Counted from the first letter of the stretch, positions 11,592 through 64,000 are shown. The stretch is 64,000 bases of DNA from a virus (IMGVR_UViG_3300022856_000003); one strand, 5' to 3'. Notes: a model not told the origin generated them from the letters alone. Numbers and translations: made by a program.

Positions 11592-11626
11592 CTCCGGGTA
11601 CAGGCGAGGTGTCTGTCGGAGCAAAG

Positions 11627-12568
11627 ATGACCTCTCTTCTCACTCTCCCATATGACGAAAGAATTGCGAGTCGCAAAGAACTGGGAGGCCAGATCCTCGC
11701 AGTTCTCAAGCTCTTCAAGTTCCAGGAGATGGACGTACCGAACAACCGCGCTTTTAGACGGTCGCGGAATCTCGAAGCTCCTGGACGATGCTTCGTTCTC
11801 CCTCGGTCCTCTGGCTACTGCCACATCGTCTACTCGAACTTGGCCAATAGTGACATTGCCTTGAGACGGAAGGGCAACGGCTTGAACAAGCTTGAGTCGA
11901 AGCTGGAGATTTCTTTTGGGACTGAAACTAGCCCGTCAATGACTCGATCTGGTCCGGTCATCCTGCCTGGGTGGCTAACTCAGGACGGCAAGCTCAAGGA
12001 GGTCGGGACTAAGAAGAACGATCGCTATGTCCGAATGCTCAGTGTTGATCTGCTCCCTGTTTCTGAACAGGTGAAGAAGTTCGTCGAGAACCTCGAAGGT
12101 CACGACTGGCAACTACGCAATGGCTTCACTCACGTGCAAGCCTGCAAGAATTGCGGTTCTCCGATGTTCGTCGCGAAATCGAGTGGCCGTATGACCTGTT
12201 CCGACATCTGCTGGGAGTTCCCGAAGAGGAACGGTCTCGGAGGACCACCGGGTCCGAACCTCTACATGAAGGGTCTGACTGATCAGATTGAGTACGACCA
12301 CGAGGGACGTGTCGTCTACAACGACCATGAGGCGATCAAGCAGCAAAAGATGATGTACCTCGCGATTCGGACCGAGAGCAACATCCACCTCGGCGAGACG
12401 ACGCAGGATTTCCAGACTCGCGCTCTCGGTCTCTACGTCGTTGAGCACAGCAAAACCCCTCTGACGCCAGGCGACTGGCTAGAGGCGGCTCGACTCGCCA
12501 GGAGTCATGTCGCACCCATCACCACCACGGATGTCGAGAACCTTCTCTCAGACATCCTCTTCGATTGA
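11627..12568 (+). CDS. hypothetical protein with a Zn-ribbon (CKNC...CSDIC) and the C-terminal acidic tag
   Basis: ATG after GGAG; ends TDVENLLSDILFD. Confidence 0.65.
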   Translation: MTSLLTLPYDERIASRKELGGQILAVLKLFKFQEMDVPNNRAFRRSRNLEAPGRCFVLPRSSGYCHIVYSNLANSDIALRRKGNGLNKLESKLEISFGTETSPSMTRSGPVILPGWLTQDGKLKEVGTKKNDRYVRMLSVDLLPVSEQVKKFVENLEGHDWQLRNGFTHVQACKNCGSPMFVAKSSGRMTCSDICWEFPKRNGLGGPPGPNLYMKGLTDQIEYDHEGRVVYNDHEAIKQQKMMYLAIRTESNIHLGETTQDFQTRALGLYVVEHSKTPLTPGDWLEAARLARSHVAPITTTDVENLLSDILFD

Positions 12569-19889: not shown

Positions 19890-20288
19890 TTGGCGAAGAC
19901 GATCCGAGGATTCAAGATGCCGTTCCAGTCTTCTGGTGGGCGTCTACCTGCGTCTGCGGAAACCGATGACTCGGTCAACGCGAGCATTCGTCGTATCATC
20001 CACACTCGAAAGGGTGAGCGTCCGATGCGACCGAACGTGGGATCAAGGGTCTGGGATTACGTCTTCGAGAACGTCAACGCGACGGCAAAGGCTCTCATCC
20101 GCGCTGACGCTCGCAGGTCGGTGCAGGCTCAGGAGCCCAGAATCACTGTGCTGTCTGTGAAGGTCTCGAGCTTCGATGAGTTGATTGGGTTCCCTGGCCG
20201 CACTGGGTACCTGATCGACTTCACTTACCGGTTGTCTGGAAAGACGTACATGACCTCGACAGAACTCGACCCGGAGGCATCGGCATGA
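19890..20288 (+). CDS. baseplate wedge protein gp25/GpW
   Basis: SIRRIIHTRKGERPMRPNVGS...FE...EPRI. Confidence 0.9.
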   Translation: MAKTIRGFKMPFQSSGGRLPASAETDDSVNASIRRIIHTRKGERPMRPNVGSRVWDYVFENVNATAKALIRADARRSVQAQEPRITVLSVKVSSFDELIGFPGRTGYLIDFTYRLSGKTYMTSTELDPEASA

Positions 20289-22414
20289 CCACTGACGGCA
20301 TCACCGCAGTCAACCGAGCCAGGTACTCAGCCCGGGACTTCGACACGCTCTTCGACGACATGAAGCAGTATCTCGAGGATCGATATCCGACCGAGTTCAC
20401 GGACTTCCAGTCGACCACCCAGGGCGTAATGCTCATGGACATGCTGGCGCACAGCTTGTCCCAGCTTCATTGGTACATCGATCGCCGAGCGTCTGAGGCA
20501 TACCTCGACACGGCACGTAGGACGAAATCCGCCAGCAGACTCACTCGTCAGCAGGGCTACCGGATGCGCCCCTCTGCGTCATCGAGTGTGGAGCTGTCCG
20601 TCTCGCCAGAAGCCGCTCAGTTGTTCGAGTTCCCTGTCAAACAGGGCTTCAAGTTCACTGGACCGGAAGGACTCATCTTCGAGGCAACCGAGACGGTCAC
20701 TTGGGCCGCTGGCGACACGTCAACGAAGACTGTCTCTGTCCGAGAGGGCACCACGCTTCGTGTGACTTCGGCTTCGGATGGCACCGCAAGCCAGGAGGTT
20801 CGCCTTCCGGCTGCGGACAACGACGGCAACTTCCTCCTGAACAGCTCAGTGGTCGTCTATGTCGATGGCGTCCTGTGGAAAGAGGCTGACTTCCTCGACT
20901 TCGGAGAGAACAACCAGTTCGAGGTCCACTATCACGAGGAGCCTGCGCTGATTCGATTCGGGAACGCCATCAGTGGGAAGATCCCCGACATCGGCTCCGA
21001 CATCCGCATCAGTTACGTCGTCCAACACGGTGAAGGTGGCAACGTAGGCAACGGGACCATCGTCGATGTGGACACGTCGCTGGTGTACCGGTTCACGACC
21101 ATCGCGCTGACGATCACCAACGCGGATGCCAGCTCAGGTGGTGCGGACCCTGAAACCATCGAAGAGGCTCGTCGGAACGCTCCGAGGTTCTTCGGGTCCA
21201 GGAAGCGTGCCGTCACCCAAGAGGACTATCAGGTTCTTGCTGGGGTCTTCACGTCTCCTGAATACGGTGCTATCGCCGCCGCGAATGCCTTCGTAGCTCG
21301 GACGGTTGAAGAGGACCTGGAGGCTCAGGGGTACATCACAACCGTGAAGGGTGAGATAGAGACGTATCAGGTGGTCCTGGCGTCCGATGTGACGGCTGGA
21401 GAGGCGTCCGCTGCATCCGCCGTCGTCTCGACCACCACGCTCGCTCTGAGGTCCTCAGAGGTCGCTACGCAGACTGCTGCAATCATCGCTTCTGCCGCCA
21501 CCCTGGCGACACAGGCGAACGAGCTAGGGGCTCAGAGTCCGCAGATGCAAGCTGTGGTTGACCTGTTCGCGATCATGCTCGCCAACGACGGCACGTGGGC
21601 CTACGACATCGACGAGCTGATCACAGCAACTTCGTCGCTCGCTCCGGTCTCGGCTGATCTGACGAACAACTGGAAGCCAGCTATCACCCTCATGGACAGC
21701 ATCAACACGGCTGTGAAGGCTGTGCTCGACGCCAATGCGCCGGGGCTCAGGACGGGTGCGGTCAACATCGACTCCTACGCGGACCTCGCGGACAGCGCCC
21801 TTGCCGACATCGACACCGAGAACGCGGCCATCATCGTCATCGTGGGCACGGACCTGCCAGCGACATTAACGAGCATTGGCTCGATCGTCGCGACACATGA
21901 GGTGACGATCGACGCCACCCTCGACCTGCTCGAGGCCCACCTCACGGACATCCTGGGTGCCGACTGCAAGACCAACGTCATCACGGTCCCGGTACTGAGC
22001 TTCGACGGAGACGGGAACTACCAGGCACCGAGCCAGGCCCTCCGCAATGAGCTGGAGCGATACCTACAAGGCATTGCGGATGTGGCTCACGTCGTCAACG
22101 TGGTCAGTGGAGTCGCGGACATCGTCGTGGTGGACATCAGCGTCAACCTCAAACAGGCCGATTCCTTCGTGTTCTCCGAGGTGTCTTCTGACACGAACTC
22201 AGTCATCGTCACCGAGATGAAGAAGCGAGAGTTCAGTGCTTCGCTGTACCTCAACAAGGCGTACAAGCTCGTAGAAGACGTGACCGGAGTGGAAGACTTC
22301 GATCTGACCCTGTCGGCTGATGCGACCTATGTGGATTCGGCTGGAAACATCATCTGTCCCGAGTCCAAGGTCCTGACCCTCGGCACCCTCACCATCCTCC
22401 CGCTCGTCACATGA
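20285..22414 (+). CDS. baseplate J / gp6-like wedge protein with an Ala-rich insertion
   Basis: YSARDFD, WYIDRRASEAYL.TA, IRFGN...GKIP, GGADPETIEEARRNAP, RAVTQEDY. Confidence 0.9.
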   Translation: MTTDGITAVNRARYSARDFDTLFDDMKQYLEDRYPTEFTDFQSTTQGVMLMDMLAHSLSQLHWYIDRRASEAYLDTARRTKSASRLTRQQGYRMRPSASSSVELSVSPEAAQLFEFPVKQGFKFTGPEGLIFEATETVTWAAGDTSTKTVSVREGTTLRVTSASDGTASQEVRLPAADNDGNFLLNSSVVVYVDGVLWKEADFLDFGENNQFEVHYHEEPALIRFGNAISGKIPDIGSDIRISYVVQHGEGGNVGNGTIVDVDTSLVYRFTTIALTITNADASSGGADPETIEEARRNAPRFFGSRKRAVTQEDYQVLAGVFTSPEYGAIAAANAFVARTVEEDLEAQGYITTVKGEIETYQVVLASDVTAGEASAASAVVSTTTLALRSSEVATQTAAIIASAATLATQANELGAQSPQMQAVVDLFAIMLANDGTWAYDIDELITATSSLAPVSADLTNNWKPAITLMDSINTAVKAVLDANAPGLRTGAVNIDSYADLADSALADIDTENAAIIVIVGTDLPATLTSIGSIVATHEVTIDATLDLLEAHLTDILGADCKTNVITVPVLSFDGDGNYQAPSQALRNELERYLQGIADVAHVVNVVSGVADIVVVDISVNLKQADSFVFSEVSSDTNSVIVTEMKKREFSASLYLNKAYKLVEDVTGVEDFDLTLSADATYVDSAGNIICPESKVLTLGTLTILPLVT

Positions 22415-41372: not shown

Positions 41373-42239
41373 ATGCGACGACTGCTCATCGGCCTTCCTC
41401 TCTTGGCATCCCTGCTCTTCACAGGTTGCGATCTCGCCAGCGGATCGCTCGACGAACCGATTGGGCCTGATGCCTCCTACGTCGAGGATGACCCGAGCGC
41501 GGACAACGATGGTGACGGCTGGGCCGCTCGTTGGGACTGCGACGACGGCAACGAGGACATCAATCCAGACGCCTCCGACACGGTGGGCGATGGTGTCGAC
41601 CGCAACTGCGACGGCGTGGACGGCGTGGACTTCGACCTCGACGGTTGGGCTGGTGAACCCAGTGGCGGCCAGGACTGCAACGACGACGATCCGAACGTCA
41701 ACCCAGACGCCCTCGAGATTCCATATGACCAGATCGACAACAACTGCGACGGCGAAGATGCGAACGGCATCACGACCTGCGACTCGGTACCGACCCCCAC
41801 CGGCAACGACATCGGCGACGTGACCGAGGACTTCCTTCTACGAGACAGTCAGAACAACCCGATCATCCTCAGCGACTACTGCGGTATGGCCGTCGTCCTG
41901 GCCTCCGTCGCTCGATGGGAGCCGAACAGCCACGACCTCGCACCAGTGCTACAGGACTTCTACGAGGAGTACCGCGAACAGGGACTCATGGTCATCACGA
42001 TGGTCGGCGAAGGCGTCATGTTCGGCGGCGACTCTGCGACTCCCGACGACCTGGACTGGTGGACCAGCGAGTACGACATCACCCACCCTGTCGTGGGCGA
42101 CCCAGACTGGGAGATCTCTGACCGTTGGGAAGAGGATTTCTACCTCCCGTCCTTCATCCTCATCGCCCCGGGCATGCGGTTGGTGGCGAGGGACCTTCTG
42201 ACCGTGACCGAGGACGACATCCTCTCGATCCTCCCCTAA
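41373..42239 (+). CDS. lipoprotein with MopE-like metal-binding repeats and a redoxin-fold domain lacking CxxC
   Basis: Lipobox LFTGC; two DCxD..NP.A....DxNCDG repeats; DFLLRD...LSDYCG...WEPNS in place of WCxxC. Confidence 0.75.
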   Translation: MRRLLIGLPLLASLLFTGCDLASGSLDEPIGPDASYVEDDPSADNDGDGWAARWDCDDGNEDINPDASDTVGDGVDRNCDGVDGVDFDLDGWAGEPSGGQDCNDDDPNVNPDALEIPYDQIDNNCDGEDANGITTCDSVPTPTGNDIGDVTEDFLLRDSQNNPIILSDYCGMAVVLASVARWEPNSHDLAPVLQDFYEEYREQGLMVITMVGEGVMFGGDSATPDDLDWWTSEYDITHPVVGDPDWEISDRWEEDFYLPSFILIAPGMRLVARDLLTVTEDDILSILP

Positions 42240-42257
42240 GAAATCTACCCTCCCTGG

Positions 42258-42821: not shown

Positions 42822-42850
42822 TTGCGTCTTTGATGCCGTTGTGCTATGTT
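42822..42850 (+). promoter_or_regulatory. sigma70-like promoter
   Basis: TTGCGT-17 nt-TATGTT, extended -10. Confidence 0.5.
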
Positions 42851-44264
42851 CAACAGGTCGAGACGACCCATTGATACCTCGCAGGTGCGAGGACCGGGAG
42901 AAGCCATGGACCAAAATACCCTCATCCTGACAGCAACCGACGGCGAAGAGATTCGCCTCATGCCGAACAGCTCTGGCACGGAAGGCACACATGCCATCTG
43001 CGTCAACGGCTGGAACGAGGGGATTGAGCATTTCGACAAGCATGGGGACGGCAATACTGTCATCCCATGCTCACCCGATCGGATTGGAGCAATGTCACCC
43101 GCTGATGCCTACCAGGAGTTCTTCCGTCGCATGGACGAGGAGTCCATCGACATGATCGTCCACGGTATGAATGCGGGCTTCTACGAGATGGCACAGGTGG
43201 AGCTGGACTACGCACATCGACCCTACGTCCTCAAGGTCCTCGGTGAACAGATGGGATGGGTAGAGCCCAACCCTGGCAACCTGACCTACTCGGCGTTTCG
43301 TTCACTGCCGACGATCGTTGGTCCAGTGAGTGCTGCGGACATCAACGGTTGCCTCGACGTGGTGAACGGATGAGAGCCAAGACCGAAATCGCGTACCACG
43401 CTGAGGAGCAGCTCTCCGCAGCACTACAGCTTGTGGCAGCTCTCGTCCTCACCGACGAGGAAGTTGCCGAAACGGCTCCTGATGCACGTCCAGGGAACCT
43501 CGTAGGGTGGGCCGAGTCGACGCGCAAGGAGATGCTCGACGAGCACAACAGACCGAAGATCGTGGCGATGCTCAAGCGTCGCGGGTACTACACGAACACG
43601 CATATCGGGTTCCCGCTGGCCTCGTTGAGTTCGCCAGGCCCTCGCGCACTCGAGGACGGCCTCGAGAAGTGTAGAGCCATCTCTGATGCCATACGAGATG
43701 GATCTATCAACTATGACCTCGACACTGGGCCGAAGAGCATGACTGATCGCCTTGTCCATGACGGGATGCGACAGGCCGATGCTGAATGGATAGTCAGAGC
43801 CCATGGCACAACGATGTTCCTCCTGGCGTCGATGGATAGGGTGATGGGACGAACGAAGTGACCGATCCCGAACCAGAGCGCGAGTACACAAGGAAGGAAG
43901 ACTTCATCTTCGATTTCCTCCTGTGGGCACTGCCAGGCATCCCGTATTTCGACACCGAGAAGAACCCGTTGAAGCGAATCAACGGAGACCAATGTGACTA
44001 CCCTGTCGACGACATTGTCCACCCGGCTGACTGGCCCGTTTGCTACACCCTCCTCTACACGAAGAGAGACGGAGCCGGAGAGTGCTGGACAAGTGCCATG
44101 GGATTCTCTCGATGGCTGTGGTTCGCGAGGCTCTGGCAGAAGATGGCGCTAAGGCACTACACGACCGAGCTTCGCAAGGACCAGAGAAAGTGGAAGCGAC
44201 GCCTTCCTCCTACTGGCTACGGCTACTCCGTGACCATCGTGCCGACGGTGTGGGTGGACTAGAC

Positions 44265-47078
44265 ATGAGCAAGAAGAATCGATTTGGCCCGAAGGGCGAC
44301 TGGAACCGCAAGTTCCACCCTGGGAAGGTCAAGAAGGCTGATCTCGACGACGACCTCGGCATAATCTTCGACATGGCGGCTGAGATCCATGCACAGGACA
44401 AGTCGCTGTTCGGTGAACTGTTCGATCAGATCTCCTCGCAACCCTCCCTTGTGAAGAAGTCGGCCTCTGTGACATTCGTTCCTGCTGCACAGAAGTCGCC
44501 GCAAGAACTGTTGCTGTCAGGTGAGATCAATGACTTCAAGAACTCCATCGCCGCCGCTTTCAGTATTCCGAAGGAGTTCATCTTCGGAGCGGACGAAGAT
44601 CCACCAGTCGTCCTGTGTAAAGGATGCGACCCGACACTGCTACAGGCCGATGTGGAGTGGTGCGAGATCTGCTACGTGGCAGGGATCAACCCCTGCGGTG
44701 AGATCCCAATGGATGGCCCACCCACGGACGAAATCGATTTCGCGACTCTGACCCCAGAGGTCTTCGCAAAGATGACCTCGTCTCAGCGCGGATCCATGGT
44801 CGGGAAGATCATGAAAGCGGTGGGCAAGTACTCACTCAATGGGCTCGATGTTCCGAAGGAACTGCTTGATGCTGTACAGGCTATGGCTCTAGCCGCGACG
44901 ACCCATCTCGACGCCAGCCCTGAGAATGACGAGCTACAGAACAAGATCAAGATCCCCAAATACGACATCAAGTTCGTCAAGGACAAGCCAGGGGCAGGAC
45001 TCATTCCTTGCGGACCGGTGACGCCGACACCCATGCCCTACCCGAAGTCTGGGCTCTGGGGGAATCTGAGCGCTCACGACCTCATCAGTGTCCAGCCGAT
45101 GACGAACCCAGCCGGAGCTAAGTTCCACTTCGACTACAAGTACGCCGAGGACGCCGAGAGCGAGGGCGTGGTCGTCGAGGACGAGGGGCTCCTGCTCGCT
45201 TCTCTCGGGTATAGCGACGGAGACATCAAGAAGATCCTCGCCGACAAGGCTGAGGCGAAGAAGAAGGAGTGGCAAGACTCTCTCCCTGGCCTGTCCGACA
45301 TCAAGCTGACGAAGACAGAGGTCACGGTCCACCCTGACAAGAAGCTCAAAGCCAAATGGGGTGTCGAACCCGTTGAGGACTTCAACAGTCCCGACAGCAT
45401 TCAGTCTGAGGCTGACCTGATAGGTGAATGGCTAGAGGACACAGGCGTGACGCCGACAGTGCTACCCAACCCGACAGATTTCGATGAGGACACTCTCGCC
45501 GCGTTCGCTGAGGCCAAGCTCAACAAACAGAAGGTCGCCCTGCTGGTGAAGGACTGGAGAAAGGTCCACCCTGGTCAGTCATTGCCACCGTTCTGTAAGA
45601 AGCATTCCGACTACGGCGCGATGATGTTCGGTGAGATCCTTGTCCACTGCGACAATGGGAACGGAACCCTGACCCTAGTCACAGGTGTGGTTGTCCCACA
45701 CTCGAGCGAAGGTGTGCAGATCATCGTGGAGAAGTCTCTTGCCTCCTCTGGAGGTGTGGGATTGAGCGACATGGGAGAAGCACTAGCCGACGTGGTCAAT
45801 AGCTCCCTGGATCTGCCACCACTGAAAGCAATCGACTACTTCCTTGCTATAGGCGTCTCAGGCTCGGACGCCCCGACCTACCTCCCACAGGGCTGCTACA
45901 TCGGAGCTGGCACGAAGAACATCGTATGGGGAGTGCCAGGCTCTCAACACGCTGTGACTGTGGCTGCCATCCACGAGAACCACTTCACCCTAGTGACAGG
46001 CGTGAACGTCCCGATCAAGCCGCCAATAGGCCCGAAGCCGATCTTCATGGATGCAGACGGCCAGAAGCCGATCTTCGCGCCCTACATCCCAGTCGAGTCG
46101 ACCCCCACGCTCGAGCTGAAAACAGCCAACGCCAAGTACGCGAAAAAGACTCTCAACCCGGCGCACTACGGTGTGGTCCCTCTCTCGAAGGGAAAGACGC
46201 AGACCGCTGTCGCAGCGAAGATGACCATCAAGGGCGTAAGCCAATCGATGATCTTCTTCGACGCCCAGACCGGGACCGAGTACTACATCGACCCCGTAAC
46301 TGGAGATCTTCACGAGGTGACTCGAGTCGTGACCAACGAAGACACCCTGACCGTGACAGTCATACCCAACAGTAAGAGCACGTTCTTTCCGGTGTCTCCA
46401 CTAGATGTCAAGAACGGAACACTGCCCTTCTCTATCAAGATGGCGATGAAAGCCAAGGCTGTCCTAGAGGCCAAGATCGCGCAGGAGACTGAGGAGATGG
46501 CTGACTTCAAGGAGCTGATGGGTGCTCCCCTCAAGGACAAGACCTCGTCAACGGACCAGTACAGCCCGATTCCCAAGCCCATCGTCTACCGAAAGAAGCT
46601 CCTCGGCGTGACCGTGGAACACATCCAATCGGAGCTGCTACCAGATGGTGAGAGCTTCCAGTACTACAAGGACGTAGTGACCGGAGACCTCCACAAGATC
46701 GTGGAAGCATCGAGCGGATGGGCCACATCCAAGGACGATGCGAAGACGTGGGTAATCGTCGAGGAGAACCCGGAAGCCACAGCTCCACCGACACACCCAC
46801 TGCTGCATAAGCTGAACACGAAGAAGAAAGTCAACGGTGATGTAGCAAGCCTCGAGGCTGAGGAGCACGTAGACGAGAATGGCGACCTCACTGTGAAGTG
46901 GGCTCCCAAAGCCAAGATGGTCACCCACACCGCTTCCTTCAAGAACAATGAGAAGCCTGAGAACCCAGACGACTTCATGTACGCAATGGAACAAGCTCAA
47001 GCTGACCGCATTCAGGCGAAGCTCGACGCAACACCACCATGGGAACAAGCACTCGACCTACTACACGACATGGACTAG
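44265..47078 (+). CDS. large mosaic protein with gp23-capsid-like, portal-like and RNR-like motifs and the C-terminal tag
   Basis: ATG 44265 follows the upstream stop; DLISVQPM, KKLKAKW, APYIP..TPT...YAKK...P..YG, IAAAFSIPKEFI and NPCGEI motifs. Confidence 0.7.
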   Translation: MSKKNRFGPKGDWNRKFHPGKVKKADLDDDLGIIFDMAAEIHAQDKSLFGELFDQISSQPSLVKKSASVTFVPAAQKSPQELLLSGEINDFKNSIAAAFSIPKEFIFGADEDPPVVLCKGCDPTLLQADVEWCEICYVAGINPCGEIPMDGPPTDEIDFATLTPEVFAKMTSSQRGSMVGKIMKAVGKYSLNGLDVPKELLDAVQAMALAATTHLDASPENDELQNKIKIPKYDIKFVKDKPGAGLIPCGPVTPTPMPYPKSGLWGNLSAHDLISVQPMTNPAGAKFHFDYKYAEDAESEGVVVEDEGLLLASLGYSDGDIKKILADKAEAKKKEWQDSLPGLSDIKLTKTEVTVHPDKKLKAKWGVEPVEDFNSPDSIQSEADLIGEWLEDTGVTPTVLPNPTDFDEDTLAAFAEAKLNKQKVALLVKDWRKVHPGQSLPPFCKKHSDYGAMMFGEILVHCDNGNGTLTLVTGVVVPHSSEGVQIIVEKSLASSGGVGLSDMGEALADVVNSSLDLPPLKAIDYFLAIGVSGSDAPTYLPQGCYIGAGTKNIVWGVPGSQHAVTVAAIHENHFTLVTGVNVPIKPPIGPKPIFMDADGQKPIFAPYIPVESTPTLELKTANAKYAKKTLNPAHYGVVPLSKGKTQTAVAAKMTIKGVSQSMIFFDAQTGTEYYIDPVTGDLHEVTRVVTNEDTLTVTVIPNSKSTFFPVSPLDVKNGTLPFSIKMAMKAKAVLEAKIAQETEEMADFKELMGAPLKDKTSSTDQYSPIPKPIVYRKKLLGVTVEHIQSELLPDGESFQYYKDVVTGDLHKIVEASSGWATSKDDAKTWVIVEENPEATAPPTHPLLHKLNTKKKVNGDVASLEAEEHVDENGDLTVKWAPKAKMVTHTASFKNNEKPENPDDFMYAMEQAQADRIQAKLDATPPWEQALDLLHDMD

Positions 47079-47527: not shown

Positions 47528-47556
47528 TTGACGTGCTCTGATTGTTCAGCTAGAAT
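47528..47556 (+). promoter_or_regulatory. strong sigma70-like promoter
   Basis: TTGACG-17 nt-TAGAAT, with TGTTCA in the spacer. Confidence 0.75.
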
Positions 47557-50674: not shown

Positions 50675-50726
50675 TTGACATGCCTGCGATGTTCAACTAG
50701 AATGTGGTTGGAACGAAATCGATTGC
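50675..50726 (+). promoter_or_regulatory. near-consensus sigma70 promoter with a downstream palindromic site
   Basis: TTGACA-17 nt-TAGAAT (50698-50703); GAAATCGATTGC at 50715. Confidence 0.75.
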
Positions 50727-51813: not shown

Positions 51814-52458
51814 GTGACACCGGACGAATACTACGCCCACGTCAGCCCGCCGCGTAAAGCCTTATCGAAGCTACTTAGTGGCCTCGCGCAGATCGTACTC
51901 GATGCGGGCTCTGGCAATTCCGTAGGCTGGCGAGGCGCAGTCCGCGCCATCAACTCGCTGCCGATGCTGGCGGAAGAGATCGAGATTGCCGAGAATCCGC
52001 CGTACAGCTACGAGACGAAGACGCCATGGGAGATGGGTCAGCTCGGTTGGCAGGTAGAGAACACCGTCAACTTGCTCGGGTGGGGTAAGTCCACTGGATG
52101 CTCGATTCGCATCCGCCGTTGGGACTGGCATGGCGACCATGGTGATGCCCACTTCCTGGTGAACTACACGACAGAAGACGGGTACCAGGACGCCTACGAC
52201 CGATGCTGCCGTAAGGCGCTCCAGGCGTGGAAGGAGTATCGAAAGCCGGGATGCCCGCCCAATGGCATCGGCAAGGCATTGAAGCGAGACAAGCTCAAAG
52301 AGGGCATGCGCGACCGCCTCTTCGGCGACGACGACACGAAGGTCAACACCACCGTTGAGGTGCTGCTCGCGGAACTCGACAATGCGCTTGGCTTGCCGAT
52401 GTTCGCCAACGAAGAAGACCCAGTCGAGAACGCTCTCGACACGGTCCAGGAGGATTAG
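51814..52458 (+). CDS. hypothetical protein with the C-terminal tag
   Basis: Ends EDPVENALDTVQED. Confidence 0.65.
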   Translation: MTPDEYYAHVSPPRKALSKLLSGLAQIVLDAGSGNSVGWRGAVRAINSLPMLAEEIEIAENPPYSYETKTPWEMGQLGWQVENTVNLLGWGKSTGCSIRIRRWDWHGDHGDAHFLVNYTTEDGYQDAYDRCCRKALQAWKEYRKPGCPPNGIGKALKRDKLKEGMRDRLFGDDDTKVNTTVEVLLAELDNALGLPMFANEEDPVENALDTVQED

Positions 52459-52982
52459 ATGTCGATGAAGCTAAATCAGGAGCAGACGAACTTTCTCCTC
52501 AGCCTCCTGCATGACGAGTGGCAGAACGCGGACGAAGAAGATCTTGCCGACCTCGAGCTGATCGAGGCGACCGTGCGGGCTTCCATCGCAGAGGCTCATG
52601 GTCTCCCGTCCGACTCCGGTTCGCTTTGCATCCTCAACATCACGCCGTCGAAGGAGACCTAGATGGAACCGACCGCATCAGAAGTACTCGCTGACGTGAT
52701 AGCGAAGGCTGTAGTCAAGAAGATGAGAGGGACCTCCTCGGTCCTCTCCTCCATCCTTGCCTTCCTGCTGGTCGGATTGCCTATCGCATCCATCATCTAC
52801 GCCGCCGAGAAGTCGCAGAACAAGCCGTCCGACGAAGGTCCTTGGTCGCTCGTACAACCCGCTCAGCACATGAGCGACAATCAACAGATCCCCGCCATCT
52901 ACACGGCAGAGATCGACGGTCGACGCTGTCTCGTACTCATGGGAGTACTGGCCGATAGCCTCGACTGCGAGGAGAGAGACTG

Positions 52983-53609
52983 ATGGGTAATATCGGCGGC
53001 CTGATGAGGCGAGGTGCCTTGTCCATCGACACTGTTCGACCAGTGGCTCGACAAGTCTGTCTGGACCTGTTCCCGACACTCATCAAGGTGGTCGATGCCG
53101 AACACGGTGTTCTCTTCGAGTGGGTCCACGAAGATGACCGCGCCGCCGCCTACCAGGGCGAAGCCTTCTGCTGGTACCAGTACAACCGCTCGAAGGTCGG
53201 TGGAAAGCCCATCCGATGGGGTGAGTTCGGCTGGTGGCTACGAGGCCGGATCGAGGCCCACACTGCCGACCGACTCAGCGGAGTCGTAAAGCACTGGGAC
53301 GAAGGTGTCGGTGAAACCTGGCTACCAGACCTCGAGAAGCACAAGACCCCCTGGGAATACCAGCGTGGGTACCTGAGCAACTCGACCTCGGTGTGGGCTG
53401 ACTGCGCGTTAGTTCTCGCTGCCTTCTCGGGATACAAGAAGTTGCCTGCGGGACTCGATCAGAAGTACATCGACGACTACCCCGAATGGGTCCAGATCGC
53501 CTCATGCCCCGCCCCAAAACAGCCGCCGATGTGGTGGAAGTTGCTCACGGGCAAGTTGAAGCCGAAGACCGAAGTCGACGAAGTACTCGACATCATTGGA
53601 GAAGACTGA
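52983..53609 (+). CDS. hypothetical protein with the C-terminal tag
   Basis: Ends KTEVDEVLDIIGED. Confidence 0.65.
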   Translation: MGNIGGLMRRGALSIDTVRPVARQVCLDLFPTLIKVVDAEHGVLFEWVHEDDRAAAYQGEAFCWYQYNRSKVGGKPIRWGEFGWWLRGRIEAHTADRLSGVVKHWDEGVGETWLPDLEKHKTPWEYQRGYLSNSTSVWADCALVLAAFSGYKKLPAGLDQKYIDDYPEWVQIASCPAPKQPPMWWKLLTGKLKPKTEVDEVLDIIGED

Positions 53610-54552
53610 TGGCCACCGCCGAAGACCTGACCGAGACCGAACCGACCAGCCAGTGCGCCATTTGCAAGTCCACCGACGTTGAAGTGCGCCGATCCGACTG
53701 GTTCAAGGTCAACGGGAAGAAGGAATGCACCTACGGTGACCCTGACTCCTCGGACATCGAGTACCACTGCCAGGACTGCGATCACAACGAGATCGAGCCC
53801 TACGTCGCCAAGAAGGAGGCCACCGATGGCTGACCAGCCAGAGTGGATTGAGGTCAAGCTCATCCTCCGCTATCGACCCAGCGTTCTGACTCCTGGAGGA
53901 GAAAGTCGCAACGAGCCCTCCGACGAAGACGAGCTGATCGAGGAGATCGATCGGGCGATGAACTCCTCCCACTTCGGTGGTCAGATTGAGGTTCGCCGCG
54001 ACCCTCGTCACGACTGGACTCCCGGAATGCACGCACAACGCGCCCACTGGGACGCGATGACCTCGGGTGAGATTCCTCGACCCAAGTGCGTCCAGTGTGG
54101 CGAGACCGTTGAGGTTGAGCGCATCGTCTACGCGAGCCCGACTTGCTACGCATGCCTGCCACCACCACGGCTGACCAAAGAGAAGGAAGACAAATGAAGG
54201 ACTTCGTCGGAAGAGAGATTCAGCCACAGGACTTCCTCGTCAAAGGAGGCAAGGGAAACGGCGCAGGCGAGTACGGAATGATCCTTCACCGGGCACTCAC
54301 CCTCGCGGACGGTAGTGTTCGCACCGCCAGGCTCAGCATCAAGTACGACCACTCCACGGGGGTCTCGGTATCCACGGTCAGAATCAAGCAGACGACCATC
54401 TCAAATCTGAACACCGTCATGGTGGTGACCCCTCCCAAGCACGTAGTGGAGCTGTTCGAGCGAGCTGAGGCTAAGACCCTCACCGACGCCGACAAGGACA
54501 CCATCGGCAACTGGCTTCACGGGTCGTCGCACCAGAAGCCCTGGGGCTGACA

Positions 54553-54855
54553 ATGACCGTCGAACTGAGCAAAGAAGACTTCAACATGCTCATCGTCGGC
54601 GCAGTCCGCTACGCCATCGGACGACAGACCTACGTCGTCCAGGAGACAGTGGATCTGGTGCTACGACACAGAGATTCCATCACCAGGGGCCGCTGCCAGA
54701 TCATCGTGAGGTCCATCCGCGAGGAGGAGAAACGGAGCCGTCTAGGAGGAAGACCCGACACGTACCGGTGGACCCGTCTCGCCGAGGCACTCGAGCAGCC
54801 ACCAAGACCGTCGGACCCTGTCGAAGCCGCGCTGGATGACATCGCGTTCTCTTGA
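54553..54855 (+). CDS. hypothetical phage protein with the C-terminal tag
   Basis: GAVRYAIGRQTY motif; ends SDPVEAALDDIAFS. Confidence 0.65.
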   Translation: MTVELSKEDFNMLIVGAVRYAIGRQTYVVQETVDLVLRHRDSITRGRCQIIVRSIREEEKRSRLGGRPDTYRWTRLAEALEQPPRPSDPVEAALDDIAFS

Positions 54856-54880
54856 CAACGGTAACCACTTCGACTAGAGT
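54852..54880 (+). promoter_or_regulatory. sigma70-like promoter
   Basis: TTGACA-17 nt-TAGAGT. Confidence 0.65.
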
Positions 54881-55032
54881 AGAAATATGCCGCGTGAAAG
54901 CTCCAACGTCCGAATCGCCAACGCAATCAAGCTCCTGGACGACTTCGCCACCGAGGCGTCTTCCACTGATCAGGAGCCCGAGCAAGATGAGTGGTGGGAT
55001 CTCCTGTACGCCGTCCTCAAGGCGCTGAGAGG

Positions 55033-55470
55033 ATGAGCTACCACGTCGAGGAACTCGAGAAGTTCAGCAAGGCCCGAAAGACCGATCAGGACGCTCGATT
55101 CCAGATGGGCCGTAAGTACCAGCTCCTCACGCCGCGAGTGCAGGAGGTCGTGGCGATCTGCCGTGGCATGACAGATCGTCCTCCGAGGGACACTCGGTTC
55201 AAGCTCTGGCGCGTCAAGAAGATGGGCTCCGTCATCGAGGTGCTTCACGAGAGATACTACGGAGAGGGGGTCTACGGTGTGTGCTCGCGTATCCAGTTCC
55301 CCGCCTCCTGGCTCGACATGCCAAGGGATGAGATCAAGGCTGAGATGACTCTCACGCAGCAGAAGATCACCGACTTCGATGACGGTCAGGAAGGCTACCC
55401 AGCCGTCCCAGGGCCTCCGCAACCAGATACCGACCCGGTCGAGGACTTCCTCGACGACCTGATGGAATAG
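55033..55470 (+). CDS. hypothetical protein with the C-terminal tag
   Basis: ATG 55033; ends TDPVEDFLDDLME. Confidence 0.65.
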   Translation: MSYHVEELEKFSKARKTDQDARFQMGRKYQLLTPRVQEVVAICRGMTDRPPRDTRFKLWRVKKMGSVIEVLHERYYGEGVYGVCSRIQFPASWLDMPRDEIKAEMTLTQQKITDFDDGQEGYPAVPGPPQPDTDPVEDFLDDLME

Positions 55471-55773
55471 ACATGGTTGGACCAAAAGAGCGGTACTCGA
55501 AGCCCATCACGATCTGGTGAGCCGTGGTCGTAGGGTATGGCCCGAAAGGGACGTGCCCGACCGGCAGGTTGCCGGTATTCAGTGTCGAGACCGAAGAGGA
55601 AGCTGAGGCGTTGATCCAGCTCGCCTGTTCGACGAACTACGAAGGCGAGTACATCGCGAAGGAACTGGCGGAAGAGCAGACCATGGAGAACCTCCAGGCA
55701 TTCAGCGACCGACTTGCCGACATCCACGAGAGGTTCTTCGCTCCACGGTGCCCCGCGAAATCGATTTCACCGG

Positions 55774-56160
55774 ATGAGTAGGACCTGCCAGAGGTGTGGC
55801 GACACAGATCCGCCGTCCATCAACACGGTCTGTCAGAACTGCGGGGCTCTCATCCGTGGAAACAGAGTCCGCAATTTTCGATACGTCGTGAGCCAGCAAG
55901 GGAGCCACTGGGTCGCCCGCGTGTTCTCCGGGTACAGAGGGGAAACCTTCGCCGCCCTGGGTGCGCTTACGATGGACAAGACTGACGTGGAGGATCTTCA
56001 CGAGATAGCCAACTACACGCCGTTCATTGAGGTCCAGTTCGCCATAGCTGCGGAGAGGCAACTTGTTAAGATCAGGTACGACAGGGCTGGCCCAAAGAAG
56101 TCCCCTGACTCTTCGATAGAGGCCGAACCTAGTCTCCTCGACATCATCCAGGACACGTAG
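55774..56160 (+). CDS. Zn-ribbon protein with the C-terminal tag
   Basis: CQRC...CQNC; ends AEPSLLDIIQDT. Confidence 0.6.
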   Translation: MSRTCQRCGDTDPPSINTVCQNCGALIRGNRVRNFRYVVSQQGSHWVARVFSGYRGETFAALGALTMDKTDVEDLHEIANYTPFIEVQFAIAAERQLVKIRYDRAGPKKSPDSSIEAEPSLLDIIQDT

Positions 56161-56208
56161 GCGGCCCGTTGTGCTACTATGCGCTTGTTCAACCGATGTT
56201 GAGGTGAA

Positions 56209-56715
56209 ATGAGCACAGACCCACGACCATCCTGGCTACTCGACGCAAAGCTCAAGGTAGAGCTGGTGCCGCAGACATCCTGGGGCAACAACCTCCGATC
56301 CCTCCTGCGTCGAAAGGACTGGGATAACCTGCGCCGAGAGGCGTACATGAAGGCTGGTCACGTCTGCGAGATCTGCGGAGGCAAGGGTCGAAAGCACCCC
56401 GTCGAATGCCACGAGATCTGGGAGTACGACGACGATGCGAAGATCCAGAAGCTCACTGGGCTCATCGCTCTCTGTCCCGCGTGTCACCGCTGCAAGCACC
56501 CCGGTATGGCCGCAAGGATCGGCCTGATCGCCAACGTGTTCGCTCAGCTCGAGAAAGTGAATGGATGGACCTGGGACCAGGCCCGCGTGAGTCTCGAGCT
56601 TGCCTTTGAACTTCACCGACTCCGCTCGACCGTCCCCTGGACCGTCGACACGGACTGGCTCGGACTCGACGAGCAAGGTGTGACCTTGCTTCGCATGGGG
56701 ACTTCCGGTGAGTGA
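56209..56715 (+). CDS. HNH endonuclease-family protein
   Basis: LVPQTSWGNNLRS, CEICG, CHEIWEY, LCPACHRCKH. Confidence 0.85.
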   Translation: MSTDPRPSWLLDAKLKVELVPQTSWGNNLRSLLRRKDWDNLRREAYMKAGHVCEICGGKGRKHPVECHEIWEYDDDAKIQKLTGLIALCPACHRCKHPGMAARIGLIANVFAQLEKVNGWTWDQARVSLELAFELHRLRSTVPWTVDTDWLGLDEQGVTLLRMGTSGE

Positions 56716-57784
56716 TCGTTCCCAAGGCGAGTTCTGGGTCCACCGGAAGTACGCCGAACTCGTCAGCTACATGGTCGACTGCGGCGGATGCGAAGCCGAG
56801 AGCGAGGAGGAATGGCGTCTCCTGGTGTTCGAGCCCGCCTACGGCCAGTTACACGGGGATGCCAACGACGTAGAAGATACCACCGTTGTCCACATCACCC
56901 AGGGAGAGATGGCCGGAGGTGGCTACTCGGTCTCCGAGAGCATGGCTGGTCTAGGCATCCCGTTCCAGCACTACGGGAGCCGCCACTACATGTGGGCTGA
57001 GTACCGTAGTTGCTCTCTCGGCAAGCCAGGAGACTGGGGAAACTACGACTACGAGGGCGGGTACTGCCTGGAGTTCGGCAACGACTCAAAGCCTATCCCT
57101 AAGCATGTGGAGGTCATTGGGGCCTTTCATCACAGATGGCTCAAGATCGGACGCATCAACCTGGGGGCTTACCCCTATGTCCCGAAAGACGGCAGCGTGG
57201 GTGCGTGGTGGTTGAAGTACGTGGTTGAGAGGAAGGTCGAGGAGGCTGAGGCGGCTGAGAACAGTGTCGTCAAGGACATGTCGACTCAGATGGCTCAAGA
57301 GATCGACGCCGACATCATCAAGACGTTGAACGCTGGTTTCCAGAAAACAACGTCCGCGCTCGATGACGCGCAAGAGAAGCTCAAGCAGTTGAAGCTCAAG
57401 AAGGACCTCCTTGCATGGTCGGCGAAGAAGAAGGCCGCGAAGAAGAAGGCTAAGCTCGAGAAGCTCAAGGCGAAGAAGAAGCTCGTTGAGAAGGTCGTTG
57501 AGACGGCCATGGTCCAGAGCATGAAGAAGGACTTCAATATCGACTACTTCTGCGCTTCCTGTGAGGATCTCGGTTGCTTCCAGTGCGCGGAGAGTGAGCC
57601 TGAATCTTCCTGTACCGAATGCGACGGATCGGGTTGCTACGAATGTGAGGATGTCGTCGGGAAGTTCTTGCCGGATGCTGAGAACGGCACGGTCTGTAAG
57701 AAGCATGGCCTCTACGCCTGCTTTTCATGTGTTCCTGGCGCAGTCGAGCCTGATGTTCTGGACATCATCTACAACACGGACTGA
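56708..57784 (+). CDS. mosaic protein with a gp23-like helix, Lys-rich coil, Cys-rich repeats and the C-terminal tag
   Basis: MSTQMAQEIDADIIKTL; CxxCxxxGCxxC twice; ends EPDVLDIIYNTD. Confidence 0.65.
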   Translation: MSDRSQGEFWVHRKYAELVSYMVDCGGCEAESEEEWRLLVFEPAYGQLHGDANDVEDTTVVHITQGEMAGGGYSVSESMAGLGIPFQHYGSRHYMWAEYRSCSLGKPGDWGNYDYEGGYCLEFGNDSKPIPKHVEVIGAFHHRWLKIGRINLGAYPYVPKDGSVGAWWLKYVVERKVEEAEAAENSVVKDMSTQMAQEIDADIIKTLNAGFQKTTSALDDAQEKLKQLKLKKDLLAWSAKKKAAKKKAKLEKLKAKKKLVEKVVETAMVQSMKKDFNIDYFCASCEDLGCFQCAESEPESSCTECDGSGCYECEDVVGKFLPDAENGTVCKKHGLYACFSCVPGAVEPDVLDIIYNTD

Positions 57785-57839
57785 AATCGATTTCGCAGGA
57801 CGCCGTCGCGTTGCTACGCGCGACCCGTTGTGATACTCT
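57783..57839 (+). promoter_or_regulatory. palindromic site followed by a sigma70-like promoter
   Basis: GAAATCGATTTC at 57783; TTGCTA-17 nt-TACTCT (57811-57839). Confidence 0.55.
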
Positions 57840-58101
57840 ATCGATGTTCAAACGAATGCCCGTCAAGGTGACGGTGGAGGTGAACAGTGGCTTCTCGACG
57901 ATCTCAATGGAACAACGGAGCTAAGCGGTGCGTACAACGTCACCGTGGAGTTCAGACCCAATCAAACCTTGACGGTAAGAAGGCTCAAGAACGCCTTCAA
58001 GAGCGTCAAGTCCGTGCCGCTGCTCGTCGTGAAATCCGACGTGAGCGATGGTTTCAAGATCTCCTTGAGAGCTTCGAGCGTGAGAGCTTTGGACGACGCT
58101 G

Positions 58102-58533
58102 GTGAGTCAGGCCGACATTCTCAAGAAGCCCTGCCCAGGGTGCCCTTTCTCTCGAAAGACGGATCCGAAGTACCTCAAGTCTCGAGGCGAAGACGTGCGC
58201 CGATTCATCGGACAGTCCGTCGGCCCATTCTTGCTCCCGTGTCACACGTTCGCGGACAAGGAAGACTGGCCTCTCGACGTGGAGCGGCCACAGTGCGTGG
58301 GTGCTGCAATGCACCGAGACCTCATCGGCGTTGCGGACAGTCTCCCAGAACAGCTCACCAGAGCCACAGGTGACGCTGAGGAGGTCTTTGAGTCCTCTGC
58401 CGCGTACATGGCCTATCACGATGGCTGCACCGTCGAGGAGGCCGTAGAGAAGCTCGACAACTATCCTGTGAATCGTCTCTTCTACGACGAGATCGCTCGT
58501 TGTCATCGATCAGGACGAAAGGTGAAGGCATGA
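58102..58533 (+). CDS. Cys-rich protein (PCxxCPF family)
   Basis: KPCPGCPFSRK...PCH...QCVGAA. Confidence 0.6.
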   Translation: MSQADILKKPCPGCPFSRKTDPKYLKSRGEDVRRFIGQSVGPFLLPCHTFADKEDWPLDVERPQCVGAAMHRDLIGVADSLPEQLTRATGDAEEVFESSAAYMAYHDGCTVEEAVEKLDNYPVNRLFYDEIARCHRSGRKVKA

Positions 58534-59477
58534 GCGTCAAGCTGTACGGAGGTCGCATCCGCAGGATGGGCATCACGAACATCCATGCGTGGCAGTTGAA
58601 TCTACAGAAGGCTGCTGACCAGATGACTCAGGCCGCGCGGTTGTTCGCGTATGACTTCGTCTTCAATCAGGCAGTACGTCGTGCAGACCTTCTCGCCTGC
58701 GGTATGCCGTTTCACGGCGAGTTCCCCTGTGCCCCTGACCAGGCTGCATTCCAAGACCCTGCGAATGCATTGAGTCCGTTCAGCGCGGCCTGCGAACTCT
58801 ACCAAAAGCGGGTCGAGAATCTAAAGAAGGGCACACGCGATCCCCTGACGGATCGCTCGATGGAGCTGTGTTGGCACATGCAGATCGACGGGAGCATCCT
58901 GGTCATCCTCTACGGCGAGCGAGATCAGAAAGCGATGGCCACGAAGCTCCTCGGTCTCGATGACTACCACTACCAGAACCAGTCTGATCCCTCGGAGGAC
59001 TGCTCCAAGCAGGAGTGGGCCGAGCGCGGGACAGCATGGTCGACCCTGTTGGACGGATGGAATGCGGCTCCCGCCGCGAGGATGTCCACCTTCCAACTGG
59101 CTCCCCCACCCGAGTTCCTCATCTGGTGGAAGGGTCACCACCCTGAGAACCTGACGTGCGACACGCTTCCCGAGCGACTCCACCAGCTCGCCACCGAGCG
59201 TATCCACCTCGAGCACCCACTCCCGAAGAAGGATGGAGAGACCATCGGCGATTTCGTCGGGAACATGGGTGCCCACATCACCGACATCAAGAGCAGGACG
59301 AAGCCGGGAGGTGATCTCCAGAACCGATGGCTCGAGATCCTCGTTGACTGCAACGAACGCATCCCGGCGGAACCCAGTCTGGAGTGGGTCAAGACGCGAC
59401 GTGCCGCACCCACGGTCGGACCTACGGCGCTCGATGCTGCTCTCGACGAGATTGAGAAGTCGAAGGACTCCTCATGA
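58530..59477 (+). CDS. hypothetical protein with the C-terminal tag
   Basis: DYHYQNQSD motif; ends PTALDAALDEIEKSKDSS. Confidence 0.65.
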   Translation: MSVKLYGGRIRRMGITNIHAWQLNLQKAADQMTQAARLFAYDFVFNQAVRRADLLACGMPFHGEFPCAPDQAAFQDPANALSPFSAACELYQKRVENLKKGTRDPLTDRSMELCWHMQIDGSILVILYGERDQKAMATKLLGLDDYHYQNQSDPSEDCSKQEWAERGTAWSTLLDGWNAAPAARMSTFQLAPPPEFLIWWKGHHPENLTCDTLPERLHQLATERIHLEHPLPKKDGETIGDFVGNMGAHITDIKSRTKPGGDLQNRWLEILVDCNERIPAEPSLEWVKTRRAAPTVGPTALDAALDEIEKSKDSS

Positions 59478-60073: not shown

Positions 60074-60643
60074 ATGAGGATCGGAATCATCGGGGCAAAA
60101 GGTCACGGCAAGGACTCAATCGCTGACATCCTGATCGACGAGAACGGCTTCCGAAAGGTCGCGTTCGCTGATCCCATGAAGGAGATGCTTCACGTTGGCC
60201 TTGGCATCTCTCGCAAGATTCTCTACGGGCCTGCCGACGTGAAGGAACGGGTTCTCCCGGAGTTCGGTGTGTCGCCGCGACACATGTTGGTGACCCTGGG
60301 GACCGAGTGGGGCCGAAGGCTCATTCATGAAGACCTATGGACCAACATCGCGATGCTCAGGACCCTCCCGCTCTATGAGCTTGAGCATGGTGTTCAGTCT
60401 TGGGTAGCTTCCGACGTGCGCTTTATCAACGAGGCAAAGGCTCTCGTAGAGGCTGGATTCGTCATGTTCAAGGTGGAGCGACCTGGATACGTCACGAAGA
60501 CGGGCGAGCACGCAGGGCATCAGTCGGAGACGGAGCTGAACGACATCGAGTACGACGTGTTGATCAGGAACGATTCCACACTGGAAGATCTGCACGAGAA
60601 GGCTAGGCGAATACTCAAGGCCATGCGACACGCCAACCCTTGA
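60074..60643 (+). CDS. deoxynucleoside monophosphate kinase
   Basis: GAKGHGKD P-loop, FADPMKE, LGTEWGR, DVRFINE, HQSE. Confidence 0.9.
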   Translation: MRIGIIGAKGHGKDSIADILIDENGFRKVAFADPMKEMLHVGLGISRKILYGPADVKERVLPEFGVSPRHMLVTLGTEWGRRLIHEDLWTNIAMLRTLPLYELEHGVQSWVASDVRFINEAKALVEAGFVMFKVERPGYVTKTGEHAGHQSETELNDIEYDVLIRNDSTLEDLHEKARRILKAMRHANP

Positions 60644-60668
60644 CTCGCTTTGATTGTTCAGCTACAGT
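60640..60668 (+). promoter_or_regulatory. sigma70-like promoter with a TGTTCA spacer motif
   Basis: TTGACT-17 nt-TACAGT. Confidence 0.65.
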
Positions 60669-63517: not shown

Positions 63518-64000
63518 CATCACATGTCCCACCCCTTATCTCCAGGAAGGTCCTGGATCGAGGTGCAGAGATGACGCCAGAAATTATTCCAGGTTGCTTC
63601 GTTCAGTCGACCCAGACTTCAAAGTCAAAGGGTCATCTGCCGATGGGCGTGGTAGGGAAGGTCATCAAGATGGCCAACTCGAGCTACGCCGAGAAGTGGT
63701 GGGTCCAGGACATGGACGGCACGAGCTACTGGCCGATGACGAAGTATCTGGCAGTTCTGGACGATCCTGGAGTGTGCTTCTCAACGCCCTGGGAAATCAG
63801 CCAGGGCGAGAGCGAGACGGGGCCTGGGAAGCGGCTCATCTTCACGATGAAGATCTGCTCCGTAAGTCGGTCCGGTGCGGCGGCGAAGGTTCGTATTTCC
63901 GGTATGAACGCATTCAAAGAGATCTGGCTTCCGGTAAGTCAGGTGCCTGCCCTTCAAATCACGGTTCGTGGTGCCACGGTCAATGCGTGGGTTCCAAACT

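Follow-up and report, generated by a model that had tools for sequence, protein, structure and literature searches.

Why should proteins that have nothing else in common end in the same short acidic peptide? The question is raised by a stretch of 64,000 nucleotides (nt) of the viral sequence IMGVR_UViG_3300022856_000003 (the window), which is a piece of an uncultured myovirus genome from a salt-lake source. An initial annotation had described a shared acidic amphipathic C-terminal tag on about nine otherwise dissimilar open reading frames (ORFs), mostly behind a Pro-rich or flexible linker, and had proposed that it serves as a portable address label. All nine tails quoted there are present on the + strand (stops at 12568, 47078, 52458, 53609, 54855, 55470, 56160, 57784 and 59477), and their number proved too low. 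The window holds 11-12 tagged ORFs, with further stops at 42239, 43373 and, beyond its end, 64206, and about 30 are counted by eye in the reconstructed genome when close variants are included. As judged from sequence, the tail probably serves as a handle by which its carriers dock on a single shared partner.

Public contigs of several salt-lake metagenomes are identical to the window sequence. Walking outward from the window through public contig pieces (L001-L017) resulted in a stitched map of 143,881 nt, in accord with a circular k141 contig of 144,017 nt; the join of L015 to L017 is based on only five overlapping bases and the agreement in length with this circular contig. Almost every gene of the reconstructed genome lies on the + strand.

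A peptide motif concentrated at gene ends

The tail is composed of acidic residues, a hydrophobic residue, L-D, any residue and one or two hydrophobic residues, followed by 0-7 trailing residues, often with a final Asp. Generalised from the nine quoted tails, it can be written as the regular expression [DE]-x(0-2)-[AFVLIMC]-[LIM]-[DSE]-x-[ILVMF]. Ending 0-5 residues before the stop, this expression gives 12.5-25 matches per 1000 positions compared with 1.2-1.8 per 1000 elsewhere in the same proteins, i.e., a positional enrichment of 10-20 fold. Over the whole genome, 23 C-terminal and 64 internal matches were counted (Poisson p = 4e-14), and the genes outside the initial list alone contribute 14 C-terminal matches where 2.8 are expected (p = 1.5e-6). 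Of the 2002 ORFs in 80 loci from other phages, 27 (1.35%) fit the expression, as against 9-12% here, a frequency 7-9 times higher in this phage. The minus strand of the window yielded zero C-terminal matches. At N-termini, eight matches of the motif were found, about twice the background, which is not convincing.

The tails also share physical properties. The C-terminal net charge of tagged proteins is -3.8 compared with -0.44 for the other proteins of the genome, the last residue is Asp in 13 of 29 tails, and the helical hydrophobic moment is higher than that of other C-termini. The Pro-rich character of the preceding linker holds statistically, with 9.2% Pro versus 4.5%. The protein bodies are unrelated, as the initial annotation had it: after removal of the last 18 residues, only one of 435 carrier pairs was similar by BLASTP at E<0.01, and this lone pair consists of adjacent paralogues ending at 64634 and 65110. 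The conservation was likewise correctly placed at the protein level. Within the tags the L-D dicodon CTCGAC is used in 53% of cases, as it is genome-wide (53%), and the flanking codons vary between copies, so the tag is not a DNA element. A promoter function of the L-D codons, read as a cTTGAC -35 box, was considered and dismissed, since the tags contain no CTT-GAC and use the L-D dicodons in the same proportion as the genome at large.

A shared ending might arise with no common partner at all, from constraints on gene ends such as the acidity of proteins in salt lakes, ribosome-binding sites of the next gene placed in the last codons, or capping helices. The source of the sequence, the very acidic tagged C-termini and the last codons, which are often GGAG- or GAGG-like ahead of the next start (e.g., ..CAGGAGGATTAG, then ATG at 52458), are in line with this idea. 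However, shuffling of the last 20 residues abolished the motif (mean of 2.9 tagged proteins, maximum of 10, versus 22 observed), so that the C-terminal excess is confirmed against shuffled as well as internal controls. Untagged proteins of the same genome do not have the acidic C-terminus, the core (hydrophobic, L-D, x, hydrophobic) is not purine-rich, and its codon use is average. In addition, three enzyme families gained the tail together with a linker and retained it in orthologues (see below). A constraint on composition or ribosome-binding sites alone fails the shuffle, codon and orthologue tests, and we regard gene-end constraints as a very unlikely explanation.

Carriers, orthologues and structure models

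Between 36 and 108 kb, in the non-structural part of the genome, lie 27 of 29 carriers, and none of the genes in the head, tail and baseplate modules is tagged. T4-type morphogenesis genes in the window encode sheath (2836-5283), baseplate wedge (20285-22414), T4_baseplate and tube proteins; the Gp23, T4 portal and gp13 genes are located right beyond the window edge. From 41 to 100 kb the tag is found on 16 of the 24 genes of at least 200 amino acids (aa) and on 7 of the 8 genes of at least 300 aa, compared with 4 of the 42 genes below 150 aa. In the genome as a whole, about 16% of the genes carry it.

Among the carriers, families were recognised for an ATP-dependent DNA ligase, a Cas4/RecB-like exonuclease, a classical-clade AAA ATPase, a QueE-like radical-SAM enzyme and a MopE-motif/AhpC-TSA protein, while Pfam and PHROGs gave no informative family for the others. 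The apparent tail of the QueE-like enzyme may be a native helix instead, because it continues conserved sequence. A portable label on unrelated proteins, as first proposed, is therefore what we find; that its carriers are effectors is not supported, as they are mostly larger non-structural proteins, including the ligase and the AAA ATPase. The tag is missing from DnaB and the DnaC-like loader, from primase and the SSB-like protein, from the ResIII helicase and the RecA-like protein, and from RNR and ThyX.

Homologues of three carriers reveal the portability of the tail and its clade-specific acquisition. In the AAA ATPase, the 13 closest homologues (43-66% identity) end in an acidic-hydrophobic tail behind a low-complexity linker, whereas more than 100 more distant ones stop shortly past a conserved RARPASS motif without any tail. 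The six closest homologues of the ligase (54-63%) carry an extension of 20-30 residues ending in the same type of tag, whereas those at 47% identity or below end at a conserved CVFDF. For the exonuclease, a 66% homologue possesses the tail and most of the more distant ones finish near a conserved Cys motif. That homologues elsewhere might do without the tail, as the initial annotation had considered, is thus true of the distant relatives of the AAA ATPase and the ligase and mostly of those of the exonuclease. Where the homologue of the AAA ATPase or of the ligase comes from a cultured phage, the alignment ends at the point where the tail begins. Once present, the tail is conserved in orthologues: a related phage, whose AAA ATPase is 44% identical and of which a 21-kb piece was compared, agrees in tag status in all nine orthologue pairs (24-49% identity), four of them tagged and five untagged.

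The structure models agree with an appended tail. In the AlphaFold2 model of the ligase, the core has a predicted local distance difference test (pLDDT) score above 90, residues 323-351 are mostly below 50, and a short helix falls exactly on the motif at residues 343-348. The model of the AAA ATPase shows a confident core up to about residue 500, an unstructured linker and a helix of low confidence at residues 518-532 (pLDDT 51-59). Docking of the tail in cis onto the body of the AAA ATPase was rejected in view of this low confidence. Taken together, portability, orthologues and models identify the tail as a short linear motif on a flexible tether, in which a disordered linker is followed by a short helix; it was gained by unrelated proteins in one clade and then kept.

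Megablast of the region against phage records gave no match, and neither the 358-aa protein nor the major capsid protein found a close relative in IMG/VR. Scans of IMG/VR and a metagenome collection with the AAA ATPase returned, among the matches listed, relatives at 33-50% identity aligned up to about residue 503-532 of 535. The portal protein is just 31-32% identical to those of the cultured relatives, Microcystis phage Mel-JY01 and Flavobacterium phage immuto; in the first 50 kb of the latter, which encodes a family A polymerase, the tag is not enriched. Other contigs of the same phage differ by 0-1 mismatch, i.e., they are identical and leave no within-population variation. A search for the host through the RNR gene in genome contigs gave no match.

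Candidate partners of the tail

Among the roles that the initial annotation had offered, recruitment to one partner is the reading that appears to fit the data best. We tentatively propose that a portable docking motif tethers about 30 proteins to one partner, most likely a DNA sliding clamp, where we infer both that the partner is a single one and that it is a clamp. The host clamp is a first guess, and another hub is about as likely. According to this proposal, the docking motif would be an acidic amphipathic helix of 10-12 residues, of the T4 'LDFLF' type, on a flexible Pro-enriched linker. It would tether about 30 otherwise unrelated non-structural proteins to a common ring-shaped DNA sliding clamp, namely the host beta clamp that sits on phage DNA during its replication, and the phage ligase, the exonuclease and many other enzymes would thereby be brought together on that DNA.

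Among known motifs, the T4 gp45-binding LDFLF peptide comes closest, followed by the bacterial beta-clamp motif. Hydrophobic and acidic C-termini constitute the sliding-clamp-binding epitopes of gp43, gp55 and gp33 (PMC2988020; PMC9690074), and these termini are interchangeable gp45-binding epitopes on variable unstructured linkers (PMC2988020). In the T4 record, gp43 ends ..EEKASLDFLFG and gp55 ends ..DDSPSLDFLYEAND. A loop peptide of the T4 ligase, EPEGLDFLFD, binds gp45 as an amphipathic alpha-helix with a dissociation constant (Kd) of ~11 uM (PMC6212786). The tails of this phage share the architecture, and several come near to it in their letters; examples are ..EALDFLCR, ..EPSLLDII.., ..QALDLLHDMD and ..AIDFMMED. 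Ligands of the bacterial beta clamp follow the consensus QL[SD]LF, a bare DLF is enough for Mor, and the Mor/C family shows Qx[DE][LM]F (PMC12867686). The orthologues of the AAA ATPase in related phages end ..DLDLFAD, ..DMDLFED and ..DDLFGD, which fit x[DE][LM]F. Moreover, the DNA ligase and the Cas4-like exonuclease among the carriers belong to enzyme classes that use clamps elsewhere.

A clamp partner would be the beta clamp of the host, since the phage is without a recognisable clamp or DNA polymerase of its own. Its replication and nucleotide genes encode DnaB, a DnaC-like loader, primase, SSB, a RecA-like protein, ligase, RNR, ThyX and QueC/QueE-like proteins. No DNA polymerase was detected in Pfam and PHROG scans or in the Pfam hits of public gene calls, and the genome appears as that of a 144-kb lytic-type myovirus without detectable DNA polymerase of any family. 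With DnaB, loader, primase, SSB, RecA-like protein and ligase but no polymerase, the phage should use host polymerase and clamp, and the gene set, including an SSB-like tail ..DDEDIPF, suggests that it recruits the host replisome. The latter tail belongs to a 334-aa gp32-like protein (L013:10001-11005) with a Cys-rich zinc site, a long Gly/Pro/Ala linker and the end ..NIDDEDIPF, which equals the bacterial SSB tip. It has the appearance of a phage SSB whose tail imitates that of host SSB and thereby recruits host replisome proteins.

Several observations weigh against a clamp as the partner. The consensus Gln of the beta-clamp motif is nearly always missing: a Gln occurs near the motif in just 2 of the ~30 tails, and the L-[DS] core with a hydrophobic pair is present in about 60%. 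In ~40% of the tails a polar residue takes the place of the Leu required by the beta motif. The known ligands of the beta clamp bind in an extended form, whereas the tails look helical. About 30 clients would lie far above any known clamp toolbelt, which is unprecedented. The carriers include the peroxiredoxin-like protein, the QueE-like enzyme and many proteins without an assigned function, whereas replisome proteins proper (helicase, primase, SSB, RecA-like) are untagged. The Pfam hits of public gene calls from 52 kb onward contain no gp45-like or DnaN-like gene, and Pfam and PHROG scans of 70 proteins contain no clamp, though a very divergent one may have escaped them. Searches by phmmer with T4 gp43, gp44, gp45, gp55 and gp62, run on every ORF of the genome and on ~160 other loci, gave no hit in this phage, and the canonical T4 carriers gp43, gp55 and gp33 were not found in its genome either. 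The T4 late-promoter box TATAAATA occurs nowhere in the genome; T4-like late transcription was discarded as an option on this ground. Because of the missing Gln, the polar residues in place of Leu and an unprecedented set of ~30 mixed clients, we hold the clamp as a possible partner only and give equal weight to another hub.

The same docking could gather the larger non-structural enzymes in one assembly or viral factory around a hub other than a clamp, for which a dark phage scaffold or receptor, or host RNA polymerase or a chaperone, could be considered. This possibility, which we rate level with the clamp, draws on the preference of the tag for large genes, on carriers beyond DNA enzymes (the peroxiredoxin-like and QueE-like proteins, the AAA ATPase, the 1012-aa protein) and on the lack of a clamp gene in scans of the phage. 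A receptor could hide among the neighbouring proteins, because nearly all of them are without a family, and the helical hydrophobic pattern also resembles helix-in-groove motifs such as paxillin LD and the ESCRT-III MIM. No candidate receptor turned up, however, and clamp-binding peptides remain the closest characterised sequence match. The AAA ATPase itself is unlikely to be the reader: homologues at 33-48% identity are present in the 80 loci where tag matches are rare, it is itself tagged, its distant homologues are without a tail, and the helix of its own tail is modelled at low confidence. Put more generally, the tag could, with the same reservation, be a proteome-wide address label read by an undescribed phage receptor or a newly used host receptor, collecting two-thirds of the larger non-structural enzymes in one assembly or compartment.

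Removal rather than recruitment would be the function of a degron, by which a protease or unfoldase of host or phage clears early and middle proteins at a set time. The C-terminal site, the exposed flexible linker, the location in the non-structural region, where sigma-70-like promoters also lie, and the classical-clade AAA ATPase encoded by the phage would suit such a role. Known C-terminal degrons are non-acidic, e.g., the ssrA-type ..LAA or the basic tails of the MuA type, and the tail is unlike them. The AAA ATPase is itself tagged and has no protease domain or partner nearby, and the ligase and exonuclease are tagged though needed throughout infection. We therefore consider a degron unlikely.

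Packaging and injection, the first use that the initial annotation had envisaged, is not supported and is the least likely of the explanations considered. Terminal targeting peptides are known from the T4 capsid-targeting sequence (CTS) and from encapsulin cargo, and two tagged proteins were said to contain capsid-like fragments. Of these, just the 1012-aa carrier has a weak Gp23-like segment (Pfam E 7e-5, below the cut-off; PHROG E 1.6e-4), and the second was not borne out. On the other hand, a separate N-terminal leader, M-[RK]-x-L-I-x-x-L-x-E, with Glu at residue 10 as in the T4 CTS, is found on at least five other proteins: one of 160 aa, a 403-aa topoisomerase IB and three small ones at 77-79 kb. 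None of them is C-terminally tagged, which makes a capsid-targeting function of the tail improbable. Two more N-termini, of proteins of 62 and 111 aa, resemble the leader by eye, and both proteins are without the C-terminal tag. A head could hardly accommodate about 30 cargoes, including enzymes of 350-1012 aa, no gene of the head or tail modules is tagged, and the encapsulin-type LxIGSL motif is absent from the tails.

Tagged genes and comparison with known terminal peptides

The tagged ORFs of the window are listed in Table 1 together with the ORFs of leader type or with a similar N-terminus. As the match of the 100-aa ORF to phrog_11947 stops at residue 80, its tail lies outside the family match. 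The 358-aa ORFan has a Lys-rich coiled segment, its C-terminal Cys clusters are reminiscent of the DnaJ zinc-finger domain, and no homologue other than itself was found among 5.8 billion proteins. PDB sequence searches with the 1012-aa and 534-aa carriers returned nothing, and the ESM Atlas model of a 245-aa carrier is poor.

Table 1 Position of tagged and leader-type ORFs (window coordinates unless a contig piece or the stitched map is named).
Position	Strand	Length (aa)	C-terminal end	Remarks
11609..12568	+	319	..DVENLLSDILFD	function not assigned
41373..42239	+	288	..EDDILSILP	MopE-motif and AhpC/TSA (peroxiredoxin-like) protein; absent from the initial list
42846..43373	+	175	..NGCLDVVNG	weaker tag variant
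44040..47078	+	1012	..EQALDLLHDMD	sub-threshold Gp23 fragment at residues 342-373; otherwise no family
51814..52458	+	214	..DPVENALDTVQED	
52983..53609	+	208	..EVDEVLDIIGED	
54553..54855	+	100	..DPVEAALDDIAFS	residues 1-80 match phrog_11947
54991..55470	+	159	..DPVEDFLDDLME	public gene call: 145 aa from 55033
55714..56160	+	148	..EPSLLDIIQDT	public gene call: 128 aa from 55774
56708..57784	+	358	..EPDVLDIIYNTD	ORFan; CxxCxGxG-type Cys clusters
58500..59477	+	325	..AALDEIEKSKDSS	public gene call: 315 aa from 58530; longest trailer (7 residues)
63571..64000	+	211	..ESCLDFMCE	start of the ORF; leaves the window, stop at 64206 (in L001)
L017:5447-5929				leader-type ORF just upstream of window position 1
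L017:7072-8283				leader-type ORF just upstream of window position 1
L017:8280-8468				leader-type ORF just upstream of window position 1
L017:8465-8800				leader-type ORF just upstream of window position 1
stitched 77055-79317 (L009)				leader-type small proteins

Outside the window, three consecutive genes of 534, 155 and 316 aa (L012:1328-4349, stitched 91315-94336) share an extended form of the tail, V-V-x-x-x-D-[VI]-D-x-x-L-[DE]-x-I-[LM]; their bodies are not similar by BLASTP. Between the genes of the ResIII helicase and the RecA-like protein, a 204-aa protein (L013:13247-13861) has an N-terminus, MMDDSVVDDLISE.., which resembles the tag at the opposite end. Its ESM Atlas model is a large curved beta-sheet (predicted template modelling score, pTM, 0.67) with no named relative, and it is not a clamp. 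A dispersed palindrome, GAAATCGATTTC, full or partial, starts in or right after the stops of two tagged genes (57782-57796 and 42237-42250). Strong sigma-70-like promoters of a single type, TTGAC-N17-TA[GC]A[AG]T, are seen on the + strand of the tag-rich region at 47528-47556, 50675-50703, 54852-54880 and 60640-60668; in total, such promoter-like sites are not more frequent than expected from shuffled sequence.

Shared docking peptides of phages were known before from a handful of replication and transcription proteins, i.e., the three to five T4 clamp clients and the T7 acidic tails. Here a single peptide is found on about 16% of the genes and on most enzyme-sized non-structural proteins, in a phage without a detected clamp or polymerase; we found no paper describing a proteome-wide tag of this kind. 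If the host clamp reads the tail, this would be the largest clamp 'toolbelt' known and a new phage route to host replisome takeover, with the clamp as landing platform. A different reader would point to an undescribed protein-sorting system. Either way, the tail would offer a ready handle to the hub and a first functional grouping for about 25 proteins without a recognisable family.

The likeness to the T4 gp45 motif is the most extensive. Both are short acidic and hydrophobic peptides in which two or three hydrophobic residues come after an L-D core, located at or near the C-terminus with few trailing residues and preceded by a variable flexible linker, and T4-type head and tail genes are also present in this phage. 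The gp45 motif is interchangeable between unrelated proteins and binds as an amphipathic alpha-helix, features that the tail would share. T4 differs in having four or five carriers (gp43, gp55, gp33 and the gp30 ligase loop among them) instead of about 30, and in place of the LDFLF aromatics the tails mostly have I, L, V or M. Homologues of gp45, the clamp loader, gp43, gp55 and gp33, as well as TATAAATA late promoters, were not found here.

With the beta-clamp motif, including phage Mu MuC and Mor, the tail shares an L-[SD] core followed by hydrophobic residues and the presence on many unrelated clients. Terminal positions are also common to this motif, and phage proteins are able to use the host clamp (PMC12867686). 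It differs by the missing Gln at position 1, by polar residues at position 4 in many tails, and by a hydrophobic pattern that is helical instead of extended.

The tip of bacterial SSB (..DDDIPF) and the tails of T7 gp2.5 and gp4 are likewise acidic tails with a hydrophobic end that dock on partners. They need a terminal aromatic residue at the free carboxyl end, whereas 0-7 variable residues trail here and the last is usually Asp; an end of the form ..D-I-P-F is found in the phage SSB-like protein only and not in the tags.

Like the T4 CTS and the cargo peptides of encapsulins and microcompartments, the tail is a short portable terminal peptide that would address unrelated proteins. The T4 CTS, however, is an N-terminal leader of about 10 residues cleaved after Glu by the prohead protease, whereas the tag is C-terminal. 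Encapsulin peptides follow another, non-acidic consensus (LxIGSL-type) and need a shell gene, and the sole HK97-type or Gp23-type gene of this phage is its major capsid protein, in the head module.

Finally, the paxillin LD motif (LDxLLxxL) and the ESCRT-III MIM, which binds the MIT domain of Vps4, are acidic amphipathic helices with an L-D start that occur on several proteins and are read by helical bundles. The analogy is functional only, without homology, and no reader of the FAT or MIT type came to light here. As an address label, the tail would be a phage counterpart of dockerin-cohesin or microcompartment targeting, built on a helix of 10 residues.

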